Below are positions 8,249 through 35,136 of a stretch of 38,820 nucleotides of DNA, one piece after another. Position numbers and translations under genes: made by a program. The stretch lies in sequence record SRR16203515_4098; one strand, given 5' to 3'. Below the pieces are notes generated by a model, which saw only the letters and a program-made list of their open reading frames with translations, had not been told where the DNA came from and did no database searches. The number at the start of each line of letters is the position of its first letter. The first letter of the stretch is position 1.

Positions 8249-9085
8249 ATGAATACCTTTTTTAATAAGGACATAAAATTGATTTCTCTTGTTAACTCAT
8301 CTTACGCTAAGCGTACTGCAGGTATGGCGATAACGGCACTCGTAATGAGTGCATGTACCACTGTGCCTTCACAGACTGACACTGGGTCTGTTGACATCTC
8401 ACACCATGCCCTATCGAGTGCCGTCACCTATCAAACCGAAAGTAAGGAATACCCGCTTTTAAGTAGCTATGTATACCAACGCGCCGCCATGGCATTGCCA
8501 ACACAAGTTGGACAAGGTGATGTGGTGGTAATGGACGTTGACGAAACCGTATTAGACAACAGTCAGTACCAGCGTGAACGTGAGCTGCAAGGGTTAGGCT
8601 ATACCAGTGAAAGTTGGAATGCGTGGATCAACAGGAAGCAAGCGACCGCTGTGCTTGGGGTCTCTGAGTTTCTCGAAAGTCTGATTGCCAAAGGTGGCAA
8701 GGTGGCGCTTATTACCAATCGAGATAAGGCGCTTGATGACGCCACGTGGGAAAATTTACTGGCGCTAGGCTTGCCACTGACGCCAGAAAACACCTGTATG
8801 CTAGGTAGAACATCGGCAGATAAAAGCGCCATCAACGGCAGCACTATCATCAACGACAAAGACTTACGCCGTAGCCAGCTTAAACAAGGCAAAGTAACTT
8901 GCTCTAACGCCACGTCTATCAGTCAATCTCATTGGCGTATACCTCACACTATTATTATGCAGATTGGCGATAATATTGAAGATTTCGAAGGGATCACCCA
9001 AGAATCTGCCAATATCGATGAATTATTACCACAGGTAGGCAGCCGCTTATTTATTTTACCTAACCCAATGTATGGCTCTTGGTAA
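8249..9085 (+). CDS. Class C acid phosphatase / 5'-nucleotidase lipoprotein, e(P4) family
   Basis: HAD motif DVDETVLDNS, ITNR, IGDNIEDF, LPNPMYGSW; lipobox MSAC. The true start may lie downstream. Confidence 0.9.
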   Translation: MNTFFNKDIKLISLVNSSYAKRTAGMAITALVMSACTTVPSQTDTGSVDISHHALSSAVTYQTESKEYPLLSSYVYQRAAMALPTQVGQGDVVVMDVDETVLDNSQYQRERELQGLGYTSESWNAWINRKQATAVLGVSEFLESLIAKGGKVALITNRDKALDDATWENLLALGLPLTPENTCMLGRTSADKSAINGSTIINDKDLRRSQLKQGKVTCSNATSISQSHWRIPHTIIMQIGDNIEDFEGITQESANIDELLPQVGSRLFILPNPMYGSW

Positions 9086-9261
9086 CAGGCTCAACTTTTC
9101 TTACATGTGATGCGGTGTGGCAAGCCGCATCCTCCCCTCCCTGCCCATGTTATTTATTAATTAGCGCTAAGGCTGTCTTACCTATCCCCTATAGTGGATG
9201 GCTATCAGGATCCCGAGAGCGCTCAGTCAATCGCCCATTAGGCATGATGTAAAAAGGTGTA

Positions 9262-9420
9262 TGTAAGAAGTAACTAACAATGGGAAAATTATTCCCAGCC
9301 CCACCACACTATGACCTAAGCGGACTAACCACCCCCACCAAGAAAACAAAAATAAAACATGTAAATCATAACCTTAGAGAATAAAATTACAGGGCTTTAA
9401 TTTTTGGCACAATACCCGCA
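9262..9420 (+). promoter_or_regulatory. Promoter region of the large ncRNA: GacA/UvrY-like box, inverted repeat, IHF-like site, sigma54-like -24/-12
   Basis: TGTAAG-AAGTAA-CTAACA (9262-9279, one mismatch to TGTAAG-N6-CTTACA); TGGGAA-N5-TTCCCA (9281-9297); AATCATAACCTTA (9364-9376) after an A-tract; TGGCAC-AATAC-CCGCA (9405-9420, GG-N10-GC). Confidence 0.65.
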
Positions 9421-9430
9421 TATATTAGAC

Positions 9431-10070
9431 TAACGGATAACTTGAAGTGTTAACGTGAAGCTAGGAAGGCTTAGTATTACAAGGTAATCACGATAACAGG
9501 CAAACGTTGAGATCGGCTGATAACAGTGGATGTTATGGACAGAGTCAGCCACGGACGTAAGGAATACGGGCTCACGTTGCAACTTCGGTCAATGTAGCAT
9601 TAGTAGACGCAAACTGTGTCACGGATGGTTAAACAACTGTCAGGATGACATACATGGTTAACAGTGACGTTAACCCCTTGCTTCGCTTATATCGGCAAAG
9701 CACTGAAAGGGACGTATTTGCATCAGCGTTATGCTCCGTTACATGCCAGGTGAACGTAGGTTGGCGTAGATCGCCAATAAAGCCTGCTAGGACGCAAAGG
9801 CAGCAATATTGAATGGATCATTATTGTGTCTGGTTACCTGCATCACTGGCACTGACATGATGTCACCCAGAGCAAAGGATTGTGACCCTATTTGGTAGCG
9901 TTGAAAGTAGACTTCATAGTGGGCTTTCAGCGACACCATCGCGAGGAACGCAGCATGTATTTTCGATAGATGTTGTGAGTTGCCACCCGGCAGCTAGCCT
10001 CTCCCCTCAAAGGCCCATCCCGGCCTTTACATACCTCTGATTTTGGCCCGCCTCTGGCGGGCATTTTTTT
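9431..10070 (+). ncRNA. Large CsrB/Rsm-like (CsrA-sequestering) structured RNA candidate, about 640 nt
   Basis: No ORF >=60 aa; 13 GGA motifs on the + strand, many in hairpin loops; long-range helices; upstream GacA-like box; ends in an intrinsic terminator. The 5' end is estimated from the promoter. Confidence 0.72.
10046..10070 (+). terminator. Rho-independent terminator of the large ncRNA
   Basis: GCCCGCC-TCT-GGCGGGC-ATTTTTTT. Confidence 0.85.
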
Positions 10071-10132
10071 ATCCATTCATGATAAACTAGCTACTGCCTT
10101 TCTAGCCTACTACTAGGTTTCTTGTTATTGCT

Positions 10133-11365
10133 ATGATGCAAAAAAATCGCCATAGGGCCACCTCACTTAACATTTTGTTCTGCGCCCTATTAGCCACTGC
10201 AATAGGACAGAGCGTGATGCTTACCACGCTTCCCTCAATGGGCCGCGAAGCTGGGTTAAGTGAGTTCCATATTGCTATTATTATGTCTAGTTCGGCGCTC
10301 ATTTTTGCCTTTGGCACCAATTTTTGGAGCCGGGTGGCGAAACACCGAGGCTACCGTCAACTTTTAATGGTGGGACTAGCGGGTTATAGCATTGGCACCT
10401 TTGCCTTCGCCGGAGTCTGGTCCCTTGGTTACGCAGGTGTACTTTCTGGTGGCGTGCTATTTATTGCCTTACTACTAACGCGCAGCCTGCAATCAACTAT
10501 TATGTCTGCCTCCCCGCCTTCCGCCGTAGGTTACGCCATTCGCATCAGTAGCGCCCATCAACGTGTTGGGGCCATAAGCCGGGTTACCTCAGCGAATAAC
10601 CTTGGCCAATTAATTGGCCCTGTGTATGCCGGTGCCCTAGTAACATTTGGGCTAGTCACGCCCTTGTATAGTGTGGTTATTTTTACCCTGTTAGCATTTT
10701 CCCTAGTGTGGTGGAAACTCCCTGCGATTGACGCTAGCCCAGCGTCAACAAACCAGACGGCGCAACATCCACAGACTAAGCCAGCAAAGGGGATTACCTT
10801 AGTATTAGTACTCTCTTGCGCGAGTATTTTTTGCGCCATGGCGATGATGCAGCAGACCCTCGGCTTTTTCTTTATCGATCACTATAACAAATCGCCGGTT
10901 CAGTCAGCCCAGCAGGTGGGCATAGCCATGATGTTAAGTGCAGCGACCTCATTATCAATACAAATATTGGTCGTACAAAAAGCGCGATTTTCAGCCGATA
11001 ATTTAATCCGCATTGCCTTACCTCTGCTGTGTGGTGCCTATCTGCTGATGTTTATCCATCAACACATTTACACCTTGTACCTGGCCATGCTGCTTATGGG
11101 CTTAGGTATGGGGATGGGATACCCGTCCTTAGCAGCGGCCGCCACCAGTTACTGCGCAGAAGAAAATCAAGCTAAGGTGACAGGTTATATTACCGCCACG
11201 CCGGCCATGGGCTATATCGTTGGACCGCCAGTGGCAGCCACCCTTTATCAATACAAAATACACGGGCCTTTTTTAGCCGCGAGCATCTTGTTAGCGGTAT
11301 TTGCCGTTGTAGTGTCAGTATCTCTTTATATGAGGAAACGACAACGGCTAGATAGCACAAACTAA
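10133..11365 (+). CDS. MFS transporter
   Basis: About 12 TM segments; WSRVAKHRGYR (motif A-like), LGQLIGPVYAG, GYIVGPPVA. Confidence 0.88.
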   Translation: MMQKNRHRATSLNILFCALLATAIGQSVMLTTLPSMGREAGLSEFHIAIIMSSSALIFAFGTNFWSRVAKHRGYRQLLMVGLAGYSIGTFAFAGVWSLGYAGVLSGGVLFIALLLTRSLQSTIMSASPPSAVGYAIRISSAHQRVGAISRVTSANNLGQLIGPVYAGALVTFGLVTPLYSVVIFTLLAFSLVWWKLPAIDASPASTNQTAQHPQTKPAKGITLVLVLSCASIFCAMAMMQQTLGFFFIDHYNKSPVQSAQQVGIAMMLSAATSLSIQILVVQKARFSADNLIRIALPLLCGAYLLMFIHQHIYTLYLAMLLMGLGMGMGYPSLAAAATSYCAEENQAKVTGYITATPAMGYIVGPPVAATLYQYKIHGPFLAASILLAVFAVVVSVSLYMRKRQRLDSTN

Positions 11366-12012: not shown

Positions 12013-12537
12013 TTATTTTTCACTTTTTGGCTGCAGATTATTTCTTACTTCCCTTGCATCAAAGCTTGTCGCACCTGTAGGTCGAGTACCTTTGCCCATT
12101 TCGATACTTAGAATGCTTTCAATTTCACTTTTTTGCGAGCCACCAACATAAATGCCAGTTTCAAACTGTGTAGAAGGATGATACGAAGTACGGCAACTGA
12201 TCACCCCACAGTCTGTCACTCGCGTATAGCGTTGGCTGAACCCCATTTGTGGGCTGGTTTCTACGGTTTCTTTATCTACCATGGTTTCTCTATCGGTCAC
12301 CACAAACCAGTCGTACCCTTCCAACAAGGTAAGCTCTGCGGCACGCAACATAGCGTAATCCATGGCTTTACCTTTATCGGTACCCTTAGCTTTAAAATGG
12401 ACACGGTATTGGGTGTCGCTTAGCTGACTTTCAGTGTAGCCGAAACCACCATTACTGGCTTCTCGGTAATCGGTCTGACTTGCGCATCCCATCATCACCA
12501 CAACTGCAATAAATAAACTAAACTTAGTTTTCATCAT
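12013..12537 (-). CDS. Lipoprotein (CC0125/CC1285-like), last gene of the ECF operon
   Basis: Lipobox MMGC; GYTESQL, YRVHF, LRAAELTLLEGYDWF; start overlaps the end of the anti-sigma gene. Confidence 0.75.
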   Translation of the reverse strand: MMKTKFSLFIAVVVMMGCASQTDYREASNGGFGYTESQLSDTQYRVHFKAKGTDKGKAMDYAMLRAAELTLLEGYDWFVVTDRETMVDKETVETSPQMGFSQRYTRVTDCGVISCRTSYHPSTQFETGIYVGGSQKSEIESILSIEMGKGTRPTGATSFDAREVRNNLQPKSEK

Positions 12538-13315
12538 TCTCTCCTTTCGCAACCTTTGTTGCTTGCCACTGCTGTTTCATTGCGTCCTCTTCTTCTGCTC
12601 TGTTAAGCGGTGCAGAGGACATCAACTTATCTAACTCATGCTCTAAGGCCTTATTGGCACTTGCAGTCTGATACTGTGCTTGTGAACCTGTGTTCAACAA
12701 GGTTTTCGTTGCCTGCAACTGCCAGTTTCCTTGTTGATTTTTACACGCAATCATTACATTTAGTTCATCTTTACCCACCACGTCCGCCTGCCGACAATAT
12801 TCGTCAGTATGACTTGCAAAAGATAACCTAGGTGTAACCTGTAATCCCGACTCCAGTATGCGTGTGTCGCCACTGTGTGCCGTATCGAGTACGGTTGAAA
12901 CGTTGGCCCAATAGCTATTGTCTGCTGTTTCTGGCGAGTTTAGCTGCATATAGCTAAGACCAGCTACTGCAGCGATACCTGCGGCTAACGACAGAGGGAG
13001 CGGCCATTTTTTGCTTGTCTTTGGTCGGCTACCGATAGCCCTAACATTCGATGCAGCCAGGCGTTGGTCGTTGTCACTGTCTGTCGCAGCTGCTGAGGCA
13101 GAAGGTGCGCCACTTAACATATTGACTATGCTCGCCGGTAACGGCTTTTGCGTCGCCTGCTCTGCAGCCTGCCTAACCACCATATCCACCTGTGCCAATT
13201 CGGCTAATCTATCGGCGACTGATGGGGTTTCAATAAGCGCGACTCGCACGGCTTCCATGTCCTCATCGCTTAATTCTGCATCTAAAAATGCAGATAGTTT
13301 TTCATCTGAAATCAT
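12524..13315 (-). CDS. Transmembrane anti-sigma factor
   Basis: N-terminal ISDEKLSAFLDAELS anti-sigma domain, one TM segment (WPLPLSLAAGIAAVAGL), periplasmic domain with YCRQ...ACK; start overlaps the sigma stop. Confidence 0.82.
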   Translation of the reverse strand: MISDEKLSAFLDAELSDEDMEAVRVALIETPSVADRLAELAQVDMVVRQAAEQATQKPLPASIVNMLSGAPSASAAATDSDNDQRLAASNVRAIGSRPKTSKKWPLPLSLAAGIAAVAGLSYMQLNSPETADNSYWANVSTVLDTAHSGDTRILESGLQVTPRLSFASHTDEYCRQADVVGKDELNVMIACKNQQGNWQLQATKTLLNTGSQAQYQTASANKALEHELDKLMSSAPLNRAEEEDAMKQQWQATKVAKGENDEN

Positions 13316-13803
13316 TATGACAATACCTCGTGGTGTGCTCGGAGCGCGCTGCTTAGTTTTGCTCTAGCCCGTGCTAGACGACTCATAATTGTACCTGTCG
13401 GGACCGACAGTATCTCAGAGGCATCTTGATAACTCATGCCTTGTACTGCTACCAAAGAAAGGGTTTCTCTTTGCTCACTTGGCAAGGTTCCCATGGCATT
13501 AGACACTTGTTTTAAGGTAATTTCACTGGTGATCGCCATGTCCATGTCCGACTCCTCTTGTGCCGACAGTTCTGGGGATTGCGCAGCTTGTAATCTTACT
13601 TTTTTCGCCCGATATTCATCAATCCACACGTTGCGGCACACCCGAAATGCCCACGCGATTAGCGTCGCCTCTTTTGGTGACGGCTTAGTGAGTAACTTTT
13701 CTAGGGTAGTTTGTAGTAAATCGTCTGCATCGGGCATATTGCCCGTAAGGGAATACGCAAACTTCCTCAGCGAGGGCACCAGTTCGGTAAGTTCTTCATT
13801 CAT
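13315..13803 (-). CDS. ECF RNA polymerase sigma factor
   Basis: Region 2 DADDLLQ...WAFRVCRNVWIDEYR; region 4 GMSYQDASEILSVPTGTIMSRLARAR. Confidence 0.93.
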   Translation of the reverse strand: MNEELTELVPSLRKFAYSLTGNMPDADDLLQTTLEKLLTKPSPKEATLIAWAFRVCRNVWIDEYRAKKVRLQAAQSPELSAQEESDMDMAITSEITLKQVSNAMGTLPSEQRETLSLVAVQGMSYQDASEILSVPTGTIMSRLARARAKLSSALRAHHEVLS

Positions 13804-14113: not shown

Positions 14114-15412
14114 ATGAACGCCAAACGACTGCTATCTTTTACGGCTATCTTGATGGCCTTTCATTGTCACGGGCAGTTAGCCTTACCATCACAGGTTGCA
14201 GCCCCTATCACTCCGGTTATAGACAAGCTACCGAAAGACTTAACCGATATTCGTCAAGGGCTTACAAAAAGCATAAGAGAAAAAAATGCAGCCCTTTCTA
14301 CGCTTAGCGAGCCCCTCACAGCACCGCTTTTCTCAATTCCTGAAGCTGTAACCATTAATGCGTCAGGGGGACAGGAATTACTCCGTGAAGTCACCACGCC
14401 TGAAGGCCATATTGCGGTGGAGAGAGAATGGGTCGTGCTAGGGCAACAAGAAGATATTCAAGCATTCACTCACCCCGACATTAGGATACTTGAGTCTCGC
14501 TTCCTACCCTCACTATCGCAATGGGTATTCACCCTCAAGGTTTCCGCGTCGCTAGATGAAGTGTCTAAAATTAGAGACACTCTTCCCCCTGCACTTAAAG
14601 CCCAAATTGCCCGCAATCATGTCTACCTTTCTCAATCGACATCTAATCCAGCGCCATCCTCTCCCTCTTTTGAAACTCGATTACGCTGTGAGAGTCCCAC
14701 CCGTATTGGCCTGATAGACACCCATGTATTTACCGAACATCTAGCCTTTGACCATATAAAGGTGCAGCAACAAGACTTTTTAAACGCTGATATGCCTATC
14801 AGTAAGGTTCATGGTACGGCGGTGGCCAGTTTATTAGCCGAAGAAATGACCGCGGGCAGTCAGTTGTACAATGCCAGCGTTTTTTATCAGCGTAATACGG
14901 TGAGTCAAGGCGCCACCCTTATGGCGCTAATTAATGGGCTGGAATATTTGGCAGCCCAACAAGTAGATACGATCAATATGAGCTTGGCGGGCCCGCACAA
15001 TCCGGTATTAGAAAAGGTGCTGATAGCGGTAGATGCACAGGGTATTCAGGTAGTTTCTGCGGCGGGCAATGAAGGGCCGGCTGCACCACCTACCTTTCCA
15101 GCCGCCTATCCCTCGACAATTGCGGTCACGGCGGTGGATAAAGAGAATTCAATTTATCGCTGGGCGAATCAGGGGGACTATATAGATTTCGCAGCACTAG
15201 GGGTGTCGGTAGAAACTGCCCACCCGACGCAAGAGCATTACAGAGAAACCGGTACATCAATGGCCGCACCGCTCATTAGTGCGCGTTATGCATGCGCCCT
15301 ACGCATAAGCAGAGATAGGGCACAAGCCATGACCCAACTAATCGAGTCTGCTGTTGATGTGGGAGAAACCGGCAAAGATACGGTGTTTGGTTTCGGCATT
15401 ATTCAAAAGTGA
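14114..15412 (+). CDS. Secreted S8 (subtilisin-like) serine peptidase
   Basis: Signal peptide; triad GLIDT, HGTAVASLL, GTSMAAP; INMSLAG, AAGNEG. Confidence 0.9.
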   Translation: MNAKRLLSFTAILMAFHCHGQLALPSQVAAPITPVIDKLPKDLTDIRQGLTKSIREKNAALSTLSEPLTAPLFSIPEAVTINASGGQELLREVTTPEGHIAVEREWVVLGQQEDIQAFTHPDIRILESRFLPSLSQWVFTLKVSASLDEVSKIRDTLPPALKAQIARNHVYLSQSTSNPAPSSPSFETRLRCESPTRIGLIDTHVFTEHLAFDHIKVQQQDFLNADMPISKVHGTAVASLLAEEMTAGSQLYNASVFYQRNTVSQGATLMALINGLEYLAAQQVDTINMSLAGPHNPVLEKVLIAVDAQGIQVVSAAGNEGPAAPPTFPAAYPSTIAVTAVDKENSIYRWANQGDYIDFAALGVSVETAHPTQEHYRETGTSMAAPLISARYACALRISRDRAQAMTQLIESAVDVGETGKDTVFGFGIIQK

Positions 15413-34116: not shown

Positions 34117-35136
34117 TTACTGATAGACGTTGTCTTTAGCTAGCTTTAAGTACGAAGACGGAATAGGCATATTCAGCTTTATCGCCGTTGATACATTAAC
34201 CGCCACCGTATATTGCTCGGTGCGGGATACCGCAATAGTGTTTGCGGGTTGCCCTTGTAAAATCCTGCGTGCTCGCGTGGCGGCTGATTGGCCAATACTT
34301 TGCTCATCGGATACCACGCCTAATAATGCTCCTCGCTTTACTGATGCTAGGTTTTCGGCAAACAGCGGCATTAATTGAGTACTTTGTCTGATATCGTCAA
34401 TAAGACGCTGAGACTCCTGCAAAGGCCCTGTGGATAACCAATAGCCGTCAAATTGCGTATCTGATGCCTTAAGCGTACTAATTATCCCTTCACTCATTGC
34501 CGCTAACCCCGCCTCGCCCTCAACATAGTTGGTTCCGATAGGCACAAAATTAATACTGCCATAGTTATCATCTAACTCAAGTAGACTCGCCACCAAACTT
34601 GATGACGACGGATAATCGGTGTGCACTAAGGCAATAGTGAAGGCGTTATCTTTAACGCTAGGCCTGAGTAAGCCCTCTAACATATCGAGTTTTATCCGCG
34701 CATCCAAGACGTGAGATTCGCCGGTAATATTATTACTACTTAGCGTATCAAACTCAGCAACTATACCTTCTTTTATTGGGTCAGCCACCGTCATAAAGAG
34801 CTTGGGGACGTCAACCAAAACCTCTGAGTTATACAAAGCGCGGGTGGCTAAGGTAGCAACCGACACGATAAGATCAGGAAGCGCATTTTGTTGACAAATT
34901 TTTTCAATCGCGAGATTAGCCTCTGCAAGGGAGCCTTGGGCATCATAGATGTCAAAGGTAATATTTGCCTCTGGCATGATCACGGCTAGTTCCTTCTCAA
35001 ACGCCGCCGTTGAGTTGAGTATGATGGGCAGTTTAACGGTTTGAATGACGGCTACATGATAGTCCTTTGCCAATAAAGGCGTGGATAAGCAGAAATAACC
35101 CGTGAGAAAAAATAGCAAAGAAAGCAAACGCTTCAT
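34117..35136 (-). CDS. Periplasmic substrate-binding protein (ABC_sub_bind-like)
   Basis: Signal peptide; VADPIKEGIV...NITG, RILQG...VNVSTAIKLNMPIP; ends 20 nt upstream of the kinase. Confidence 0.8.
   Translation of the reverse strand: MKRLLSLLFFLTGYFCLSTPLLAKDYHVAVIQTVKLPIILNSTAAFEKELAVIMPEANITFDIYDAQGSLAEANLAIEKICQQNALPDLIVSVATLATRALYNSEVLVDVPKLFMTVADPIKEGIVAEFDTLSSNNITGESHVLDARIKLDMLEGLLRPSVKDNAFTIALVHTDYPSSSSLVASLLELDDNYGSINFVPIGTNYVEGEAGLAAMSEGIISTLKASDTQFDGYWLSTGPLQESQRLIDDIRQSTQLMPLFAENLASVKRGALLGVVSDEQSIGQSAATRARRILQGQPANTIAVSRTEQYTVAVNVSTAIKLNMPIPSSYLKLAKDNVYQ

Follow-up and report, generated by a model that had tools for sequence, protein, structure and literature searches.

The small RNAs (sRNAs) CpxQ, GlnZ and PspH derive from the 3′ untranslated regions (UTRs) of cpxP, glnA and pspG, and two of them, GlnZ and PspH, depend on sigma-54 promoters. 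CrcZ and CrcY of Pseudomonas are sigma-54-dependent RNAs of about 400 nucleotides (nt) that titrate an RNA-binding regulator through repeated short motifs, and we know of no origin of CrcZ in a protein gene. In the Csr/Rsm system, hairpins with GGA in the loop are the site of CsrA/RsmA, and the E. coli sponge CsrB is about 370 nt long. The birth of bacterial regulatory RNAs has mostly been inferred from isolated cases. Here we analyse a locus in a 38,820-nt stretch of DNA from sequence record SRR16203515_4098 (the window), in which positions 9431–10070 of the + strand had been read, from the letters alone, as an unannotated candidate giant CsrA/RsmA sponge (the original prediction). We propose, with a probability of about 0.65 for the joint claim, which excludes CsrA binding, that this segment is a non-coding descendant of an OsmY-like gene and a functional RNA. 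No description of this RNA was found in Rfam or in the literature searched, although one of the 127 chromosomal sRNAs left unnamed by Hou et al. 2018 (PMC5864184) may be the same RNA.

The locus shares with CpxQ, GlnZ and PspH an sRNA-like module in the 3′ UTR of an envelope-protein gene, transcribed from the same promoter, and differs from them in that the parent coding sequence (CDS) is decayed or deleted in most species while the promoter and 3′ module are kept. The parent would be a gene for an OsmY-like BON-domain protein, intact orthologues of which stand at the same locus; the window is collinear with them but its frame is broken. Unlike CrcZ, which carries A-rich motifs for Hfq/Crc, the window RNA carries GGA, and it has no sequence match to CrcZ (no Rfam match).

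A conserved sigma-54-type transcription unit

The window DNA is from an Alteromonas genome, and its major facilitator superfamily (MFS) transporter protein is 86% identical to that of A. profundi, the nearest named relative. The segment of interest lies between a gene for a HAD-type acid phosphatase (8249–9085) and this MFS gene (10133–11365). The unit and its control sites are as follows.

9431–10070, + strand: non-coding RNA, with the start predicted about 12 nt past the −12 GC, the end at the terminator T-run, and a consensus structure that covaries
9405–9420, + strand: sigma-54 (−24/−12) type promoter, TGGCAC-N5-CCGCA, a motif found once upstream of the conserved terminator
9404–9431, + strand: sigma-70-like match, TTGGCA-16-TAGACT, overlapping the sigma-54 motif
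9364–9376, + strand: IHF-like site AATCATAACCTTA, with one mismatch to WATCARNNNNTTR, between the upstream site and the promoter
9262–9279, + strand: degenerate remnant of an upstream activator-type site (TGTC-N10-GACA class), with two mismatches in the best register, at about −169 from the predicted start

A single copy of TGGCAC-N5-nnGC[AT] precedes the conserved terminator in the window, in 21 of 21 loci first examined and in 40 of 40 further loci of the genus. Among 55 distinct sequences (the window and 54 others), all 55 carry the −24/−12 motif, which appears in the alignment as an invariant TGGCAC-N5-nnGCA, placing the start at about 9431. A sigma-70-like match overlapping the promoter is also present in E. 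coli glmY. A TGTC-N10-GACA-class site about 150–175 nt upstream was recovered with at most one mismatch in 24/55 loci, against 8.3% of random 234-nt segments, and the IHF-type site is exact in 14/55 loci and has one mismatch in 31/55 (the window included). Both consensuses (for IHF, WATCARNNNNTTR) and this layout have been described for glmY/glmZ (Goepel et al. 2011, PMC3045617), and, as far as that description goes, the locus resembles GlmY/GlmZ in having a sigma-54-type promoter, a TGTC-N10-GACA-type site (degenerate in the window) and an IHF-type site between them, together predicted to drive a non-coding RNA. It differs in having one clear upstream site rather than three, and its RNA is unrelated, with no Rfam GlmY/GlmZ match. 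No gene for a sigma-54 activator was found within the 38,820-nt window; rpoN and csrA were each present in 3/3 related genomes searched. Only two other matches to the sigma-54 −24/−12 pattern occur in the window, at 34972 (+) and 35910 (−), and these lie inside ORFs (open reading frames) for an ABC substrate-binding protein and a luciferase-like monooxygenase.

Of 22 loci recovered, 21 could be aligned across the stretch that precedes the MFS gene, and conservation is strongest near the 5′ end and over the final 250 nt; the same MFS gene follows in 19/21, and the upstream neighbour gene varies. The 3′ module described below was found in 52/79 Alteromonas genomes and, in a sample of the wider family, in 11/301 genomes. 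Promoter-to-terminator distances vary among the 55 sequences: 191–316 nt in 10, about 505 nt in 24, 437 nt in one, 591 nt in another, 636–646 nt in three (the window included), about 654 nt in five and 659–675 nt in 11. The element is single-copy in all genomes with a match except one (G028), which holds two 505-nt non-coding copies (L030 and L038) about 23.6 kb apart, each with its own sigma-54 motif and terminator.

The last 75 nt of the RNA are almost invariant across the genus and consist of the following parts.

9998–10008, + strand: single-stranded CU-rich motif CCUCUCCCCUC at the start of the 3′ module, near-invariant or invariant in 19/19 homologues
10010–10027, + strand: small hairpin AAGGCC-CAUCCC-GGCCUU with a C-rich loop, from the alignment and RNAalifold
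10033–10040, + strand: second CU-rich single-stranded motif ACCUCUGA, followed by a U-rich spacer, from the alignment
10046–10070, + strand: intrinsic terminator with seven G-C pairs, a 3-nt loop and U7, invariant in 19/19 (helix 17)

This module is the only part that the intact, long and short loci, 55 in all, have in common, and in the 11 loci with an intact gene it makes up the 68–76-nt 3′ UTR. Judged from these 55 sequences, the universal core of the RNA family consists of the promoter and the 3′ module and does not include the GGA-bearing body. The module has an sRNA-type feature, a conserved single-stranded seed candidate beside a U-tailed terminator, which it shares with the 3′ UTR of the parent mRNA, and we give even odds to its predicted base-pairing activity. 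Its best Rfam match is MmgR/alpha-r8 (RF00519; 31.8 bits, E 2e-4, 10006–10077), which likewise combines a small hairpin and a CU-rich single strand with a terminator; however, the score is below the 41-bit cut-off and RF00519 is alphaproteobacterial, and we take the resemblance to be one of architecture, not ancestry. Just past the terminator (10071–10132), a [TC][AG]TGATAA sequence is kept in most relatives; the window has ATGATAA at 10079–10085, a possible −10 region of a promoter belonging to the MFS gene itself.

Proposed descent from an OsmY-like BON-domain gene

In 11 of the 55 loci, those of the 659–675-nt class, an intact ORF of 186–192 amino acids (aa) lies between the same promoter and 3′ module, encoding a signal peptide and two BON domains (Pfam PF04972; E 6e-34) and leaving a 5′ UTR of 15–30 nt. 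Direct comparison with these orthologues revealed two apparent relics in the window RNA.

9516–9563, + strand: relic of the BON gene's N-terminal coding portion, including the GGCTGA/TCAGCC pairing and the GGA at 9553 and 9561
9843–9980, + strand: relic of the second BON domain, including the GGA at 9877 (parent codons Q-G-I-V) and 9945

With the 3′ module removed, blastn matched the 9516–9563 region to one intact locus (L075) at 74% over 50 nt (E 0.001) and to three others (L021, L003 and L066) at 79% over 29 nt (E 0.027), matched the C-terminal part to L021 and L003 (E 5e-4), and aligned nt 86–471 of the window RNA collinearly with nt 89–492 of L064 in a 419-nt alignment. Searched against the L021 CDS, the window RNA matched over 61 nt of the 9843–9980 region (70%, E 7.6e-4), and blastx of this region hit aa 143–181 in 8/11 intact proteins (E 0.002–0.35). 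The reversed-sequence nulls for these comparisons were empty. The second BON domain was likewise recovered by BLASTP when an intact protein was compared with one 505-nt form in a frame free of stops (E 1e-5, 33% over 69 aa), and single-base indels shift the frames between relatives. Codon relics can be read off directly: GGCTGA/TCAGCC corresponds to A-D ... S-A, the GGA at 9553 and 9561 to T/K-D and R/W-I, and GCAA-AGGA-TTGT to Q-G-I-V. Pfam detected no BON domain in conceptual translations of 4/4 505-nt remnants or in a 52-aa ORF of the window, so that the BON homology of the window rests on the direct comparison with intact orthologues.

All three frames of 9431–10070 contain stops, and no ORF there exceeds 55 aa. 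A functional BON gene in the window was therefore rejected, given stops in every frame, no start, a longest ORF of 55 aa and the blank Pfam result. Because the window RNA is collinear with an intact gene but full of stops, it is best read as a decayed gene copy. A small ORF (M-E-W/C-...) in the GGA-rich centre of the 505-nt forms was also considered and dropped, its ATG being replaced in L008 and L005.

The MFS protein tree, rooted on Colwellia or at the midpoint, has two intact-gene loci at its base, and a single well-supported clade of 17 rows (100/98) takes in every long decayed form, along with one nested short form. This topology suggests one old loss of coding capacity followed by retention down to about 60% MFS identity; since the long decayed forms make up a single clade, the non-coding state would have survived divergence to that level. 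The intact BON genes (L021:6702-7262 and other orthologues) have inverted repeats where the non-coding forms have helices, for example GCTGATG...CATCAGC close to where the signal peptide is cleaved and, within the second BON domain, GAGATCC...GGATCT, and some of the RNA structure may predate the loss of coding.

Conserved and covarying RNA structure

The minimum-energy fold of the window RNA (−209.8 kcal/mol) is moderately better than those of shuffled sequences (z = −2.28, 20 shuffles). We derived an RNAalifold consensus of 88 pairs in 17 helices from an alignment of 19 non-coding homologues. Double-sided changes were present in 31 of the 88 pairs, against 8.9 ± 2.3 in 500 column shuffles (0/500 reached 31) and 9–16 pairs in controls with slid partners. 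The covariation score was 0.185, compared with 0.118 in the shuffles and 0.03–0.06 in the slid controls. The elements that recur below are these.

9431–9438, + strand: helix 1, 5′ strand UAACGGAU, pairing with 9734–9741 and closing the 5′ domain
9734–9741, + strand: helix 1, 3′ strand CUCCGUUA, in conserved pairing with 9431–9438
9458–9472, + strand: hairpin AAGCU-AGGAA-GGCUU with GGA in the loop, the AGGA loop kept in 19/19

The central pairs of helix 1 are kept in 19/19 homologues and its edges show GU/GC/AU and AU/UA exchanges; the 5′ domain that it closes spans 311 nt of the window, and in the 505-nt forms it spans 176 nt. Taken sequence by sequence, an 8-nt complement within the body is common in shuffles (p 0.05–0.9), so the support for helix 1 comes from its fixed position and compensating changes. 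The stem of the hairpin at 9458–9472 changes on both sides in L010, L013, L004 and the 654-nt forms.

Much of what had been noticed in the letters alone is borne out here. The segment had been described as a discrete structured non-coding RNA running from about 9431 to a clean terminator, and the promoter, helix 1, coverage of a homologue by RNA-library contigs and the stem of seven G-C pairs at 10046–10062 followed by T7 all agree with this. As stated, there is no ORF of at least 60 aa, the longest between 9086 and 10100 having 57 and 55 aa. The long-range pairings TAACGGA (9431)/TCCGTTA (9735–9741) and GGCTGA/TCAGCC can be read directly, the first being the conserved helix 1 of the family, and GAAGT..TAACGTGA with TCACGTTG..ACTTC is complementary at 12 of 15 positions. 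The comparison with relatives proposed there yielded the covarying structure given above (31/88 pairs). The statement that many hairpins are capped by GGA held in part: all seven small hairpins exist in the sequence, but it is only partly true of the ensemble fold, because 5/13 GGA are more than 50% unpaired by base-pairing probability.

Selective conservation of GGA motifs

We counted GGA on the + strand, TCC being GGA on the other strand (UCC in the RNA). The window RNA has GGA at 9435, 9464, 9528, 9537, 9553, 9561, 9623, 9643, 9710, 9790, 9815, 9877 and 9945, all 13 placed exactly as originally listed, and only three TCC. Twelve of the 13 stand in an A(N)GGA context, and an exact CAGGAUG occurs once, within the hairpin at 9641. 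The count alone is weak evidence: it is unremarkable against the RNA's own dinucleotide shuffles (9.7 ± 2.4 GGA; 11% reach 13) and unusual against the GGA-poor remainder of the window, where 640-nt segments average 4.2 ± 2.5 and 1.2% reach 13. The mean unpairedness of the GGA is 0.52, against 0.36 for all trinucleotides (p ~0.02); GGA are less paired than average in 9/9 folded sequences, significantly so at 0.05 in 6/9.

The conservation of these motifs is more telling than their number. Within the window-type trio, 9/13 GGA are fully conserved against 121/535 other trinucleotides (p 5.6e-4; rank 1 of 47), with an identity of 0.93 for the GGA cores and of 0.76 for the two nucleotides that flank them on each side. 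For 23 forms of about 505 nt, the corresponding values at a conservation of at least 95% are 8/13 and 69/401 (p 6e-4; rank 1 of 36), and across three non-coding lineages with a mean identity of 62% they are 8/13 and 81/535 (p 2e-4; rank 1 of 47). The control set of 11 intact genes, with a mean identity of 75%, gave 4/15 GGA against 88/554 (p 0.21; rank 11 of 47). Six GGA of the window are common to at least 16/19 homologues, namely 9435 (in helix 1), 9464, 9790, 9815, 9877 and 9945. On these alignments, the GGA motifs of the non-coding lineages are under selection while their flanks drift. The pattern suggests the mark of a GGA-reading partner, for which CsrA is the obvious candidate, and we tentatively regard the body as a putative CsrA decoy, with the odds a little against it.

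Comparison with Csr sponges of Alteromonas

CsrB-type RNAs have dense GGA, roughly one per 12–25 nt, and almost no UCC. The window RNA falls well outside this range, with 13 GGA in 640 nt (one per 49 nt) and three UCC. No Rfam family matched anywhere in the window at the gathering score, and none of the seven matches at E <= 10 in 9050–10150 was to CsrB/CsrC/Rsm (RF00018 and related). At a permissive threshold, only sub-threshold terminator-type matches appeared, in the last 70 nt of the window RNA and in five homologous loci. The GacA/UvrY box TGTAAG-N6-CTTACA has a one-mismatch match at 9262–9279, which we rejected: among the window and 21 loci, the box occurs only in the window and, with two mismatches, in L001, and the match overlaps the different, conserved upstream site of the TGTC-N10-GACA class.

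Related genomes carry, elsewhere, a separate Csr-type locus (L023:1091-1715, L024:1346-1896, L025:1478-1917 and L026:1367-1878), with 35–50 GGA in 440–625 nt (one per 12.5–13.4 nt), 0–1 UCC and, in 3/4, a one-mismatch TGTAAG-N6-CTTACA box upstream. These loci score 11.8–25.7 bits on the Rfam CsrB model, far below its cut-off of 71, so that the curated model misses them. They probably correspond to Aln1a–c, three tandem A(N)GGA-rich sRNAs proposed as Alteromonas CsrB/C analogues in Hou et al. 2018 (PMC5864184). Similarity of the window RNA to this Aln1-like locus was sought and discarded, blastn giving chance matches only (E >= 0.2).

Like CsrB/CsrC/RsmX–Z and Aln1a–c, the window RNA is non-coding, ends in an intrinsic terminator, has several A(N)GGA, some of them in predicted hairpin loops, with few UCC, is covered by contigs of environmental RNA libraries (through a homologue) and has GGA that appear to be under purifying selection. 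Unlike CsrB and Aln1, it shows no homology to either by Rfam or blastn, has a GGA density about fourfold lower, is preceded by a sigma-54 promoter instead of a GacA/UvrY-box promoter, extends over 640 nt with long GGA-free helices, probably descends from a protein gene and has short family members that are devoid of the GGA body. These differences do away with the idea of a longer CsrB. The features that had suggested a sponge (the GGA excess, the A(N)GGA context and the helices GGCTGA/TCAGCC and GCAA-AGGA-TTGT) would instead be inherited from codons of the BON gene. A strong CsrB match, which was said to threaten the novelty of the RNA, did not appear at E <= 10.

Expression of a homologue

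Expression data come not from the species of the window but from a 505-nt homologue (L016) that is about 60% identical overall to the window RNA. At least 72% of the words sampled from L016 occur in each of six runs recorded as RNA, and contigs from 4/4 RNA libraries examined, from four studies, cover it. Such assembled contigs show no ends, strand or level, and their k-mer depth cannot rank parts of a gene. In two metatranscriptomes (X10 and X13), separate short contigs lie on L016, among them a 314-nt contig covering 9421–9734, and the other two libraries gave flat spanning contigs. As a hint only, contig k-mer depth in X13 was 1388 over 9421–9734, 100 over 9777–10137 and 5.9 inside the MFS gene; in X10, single contigs reached 24,383 against 309 between the 5′ part and the rest, again a hint only. 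No internal terminator that might explain the breaks between contigs was found on the + strand of the homologue, and one RNA-library contig spans its 3′ half into the MFS gene. Neither X10 nor X13 has a contig over L016 upstream of about 9376, and contigs begin at 9421–9438, compared with a predicted start at 9406. We did not use these positions as start-site evidence, since X10 has loose ends there, contigs of X6 and X7 run through and contigs cannot show starts.

Proposed history and alternative explanations

We propose that a sigma-54 unit closed by an intrinsic terminator would once have expressed the OsmY-like protein; some Alteromonas still have the intact gene, with the same promoter, upstream activator-type site, IHF-type site and 3′ UTR around it, while this genome and most of the genus would have lost the frame but kept the transcript. 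The transcript would have been retained because it works as an RNA, a view that draws on the covarying structure and on GGA motifs preserved while their flanks drift. The 3′ module would be an sRNA-like element older than the loss of the protein, and we give even odds to the pairing of its CU-rich stretches with purine-rich, Shine–Dalgarno-like targets. The former coding body, with about 15 codon-supplied A(N)GGA, may act as a structured scaffold presenting some of them to a GGA-reading partner. That partner would most plausibly be CsrA, which would make the RNA a low-density decoy under sigma-54 control, an extension that we hold only tentatively.

Several observations weigh against this history or against parts of it. 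The window's own upstream activator-type site is degenerate, so that the sigma-54 promoter may be weak in this genome, and, because the sigma-70-like match overlaps it, the start of the RNA is uncertain by about 10 nt. The 10 short forms (191–316 nt) keep the promoter and 3′ module and have only 1–7 GGA, which makes the GGA body dispensable in some species. Transcripts of the intact genes carry 8–19 GGA and 2–8 UCC, and the window count does not exceed theirs. The intact CDSs contain 7–17 GGA against means of 9.5–15.1 in synonymous-codon shuffles, with no gene significant, so the GGA surplus and strand asymmetry would be inherited rather than built. In a close trio of intact genes, GGA conservation is also raised (14/15 against 350/554, p 0.011). 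The control for the 31 covarying pairs uses the alignment from which the structure was derived, in which many rows are close kin, and the tree is that of one neighbouring gene, the MFS gene. The provenance of the expression data and the limits of assembled contigs, given above, count on the same side.

The alternative that survives best, though we consider it unlikely, holds that only the 3′ module matters: the locus would be a gene for a 3′-UTR-derived sRNA, its 560-nt body a slowly decaying spacer linking the promoter to the 3′ end, and the conserved GGA would be explained by local structure, or by base-pairing to the CU-rich motifs at the 3′ end, and not by a protein partner. This would account for a module that is common to all 55 loci and nearly invariant, for the loss of most of the body in the 191–316-nt forms, and for RNAalifold helices 13 and 6, in which GAGG (9944–9947) and AGGU (~9752) pair with the two CU-rich motifs. 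A neutral spacer, however, would not hold 31 covarying pairs or top-ranked GGA at 62% identity. The two helices never vary and so have no covariation support, there are only three UCC for 13 GGA, and the deepest short contigs in the two metatranscriptomes fall within the 5′ part instead of the 3′ module, which is a hint only.

That the locus is a dead pseudogene with a leftover promoter and no function seems improbable to us. The frame is indeed destroyed, the Pfam BON domain is gone from 4/4 remnants and from the 52-aa ORF, and the upstream site is degenerate, yet the non-coding clade has diverged to about 60% MFS identity with promoter, 5′ end, helices and 3′ module persisting, the GGA are specifically conserved, and the element is kept in 52/79 genomes of the genus. 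A long cis-acting leader or attenuator of the MFS gene (10133–11365) would explain the link to that gene in 19/21 loci and the contig that runs into it, but a contig across two genes proves no single transcript and a strong terminator stands between them. In L003 and L021, moreover, an ORF of 711–783 aa intervenes (fadB-like by Pfam in L021), and in 11 loci a whole protein gene, 3′ UTR included, occupies the place of the supposed leader; we therefore regard this explanation as very improbable. Membership in the CsrB/CsrC/RsmX–Z group, as a long homologue of the GacA/UvrY-dependent sponges, could appeal to the 13 GGA, the 12 A(N)GGA, the exact CAGGAUG in the hairpin at 9641 and the one-mismatch box at 9262–9279, but it is scarcely credible given no Rfam match at E <= 10, a box that is not conserved, a sigma-54 promoter in 55/55 loci, a separate Csr-type locus in related genomes that blastn matches no better than E 0.2, and a body apparently descended from a protein gene.

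Elsewhere in the window, an extracytoplasmic-function (ECF)-type sigma factor gene (Sigma70_r2/r4) at 13315–13803 is followed by two ORFs, 263 and 179 aa long and both unmatched in Pfam (together 12013–13803, minus strand), the latter two possibly an anti-sigma pair, and a subtilase gene lies divergent at 14114–15412.

Significance

The preferred reading, descent from an OsmY-like gene and retention as a functional RNA, has a general use in that the same syntenic locus appears to present a graded series of intact gene, full-length relic and short RNA, so that the route by which an mRNA becomes a non-coding RNA can be tested directly. It also carries a warning, that stretches rich in GGA and hairpins and free of ORFs can be decayed genes, and that GGA counts alone do not prove a Csr sponge. 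If the GGA body does bind CsrA, it would be a Csr antagonist under sigma-54 rather than GacA, derived from a CDS pre-adapted by its codon content. The fullest version, a passage from gene to RNA with all stages visible in one genus and a body acting as a second-tier CsrA decoy under sigma-54 and an enhancer-binding protein, is one that we regard as doubtful; if true, the decoy would link the Csr network to an envelope or nutrient signal by a route independent of the GacA-type Aln1 RNAs. Because Alteromonas are abundant marine copiotrophs and the RNA has been assembled from several ocean libraries, it may matter for the reading of metatranscriptomes.

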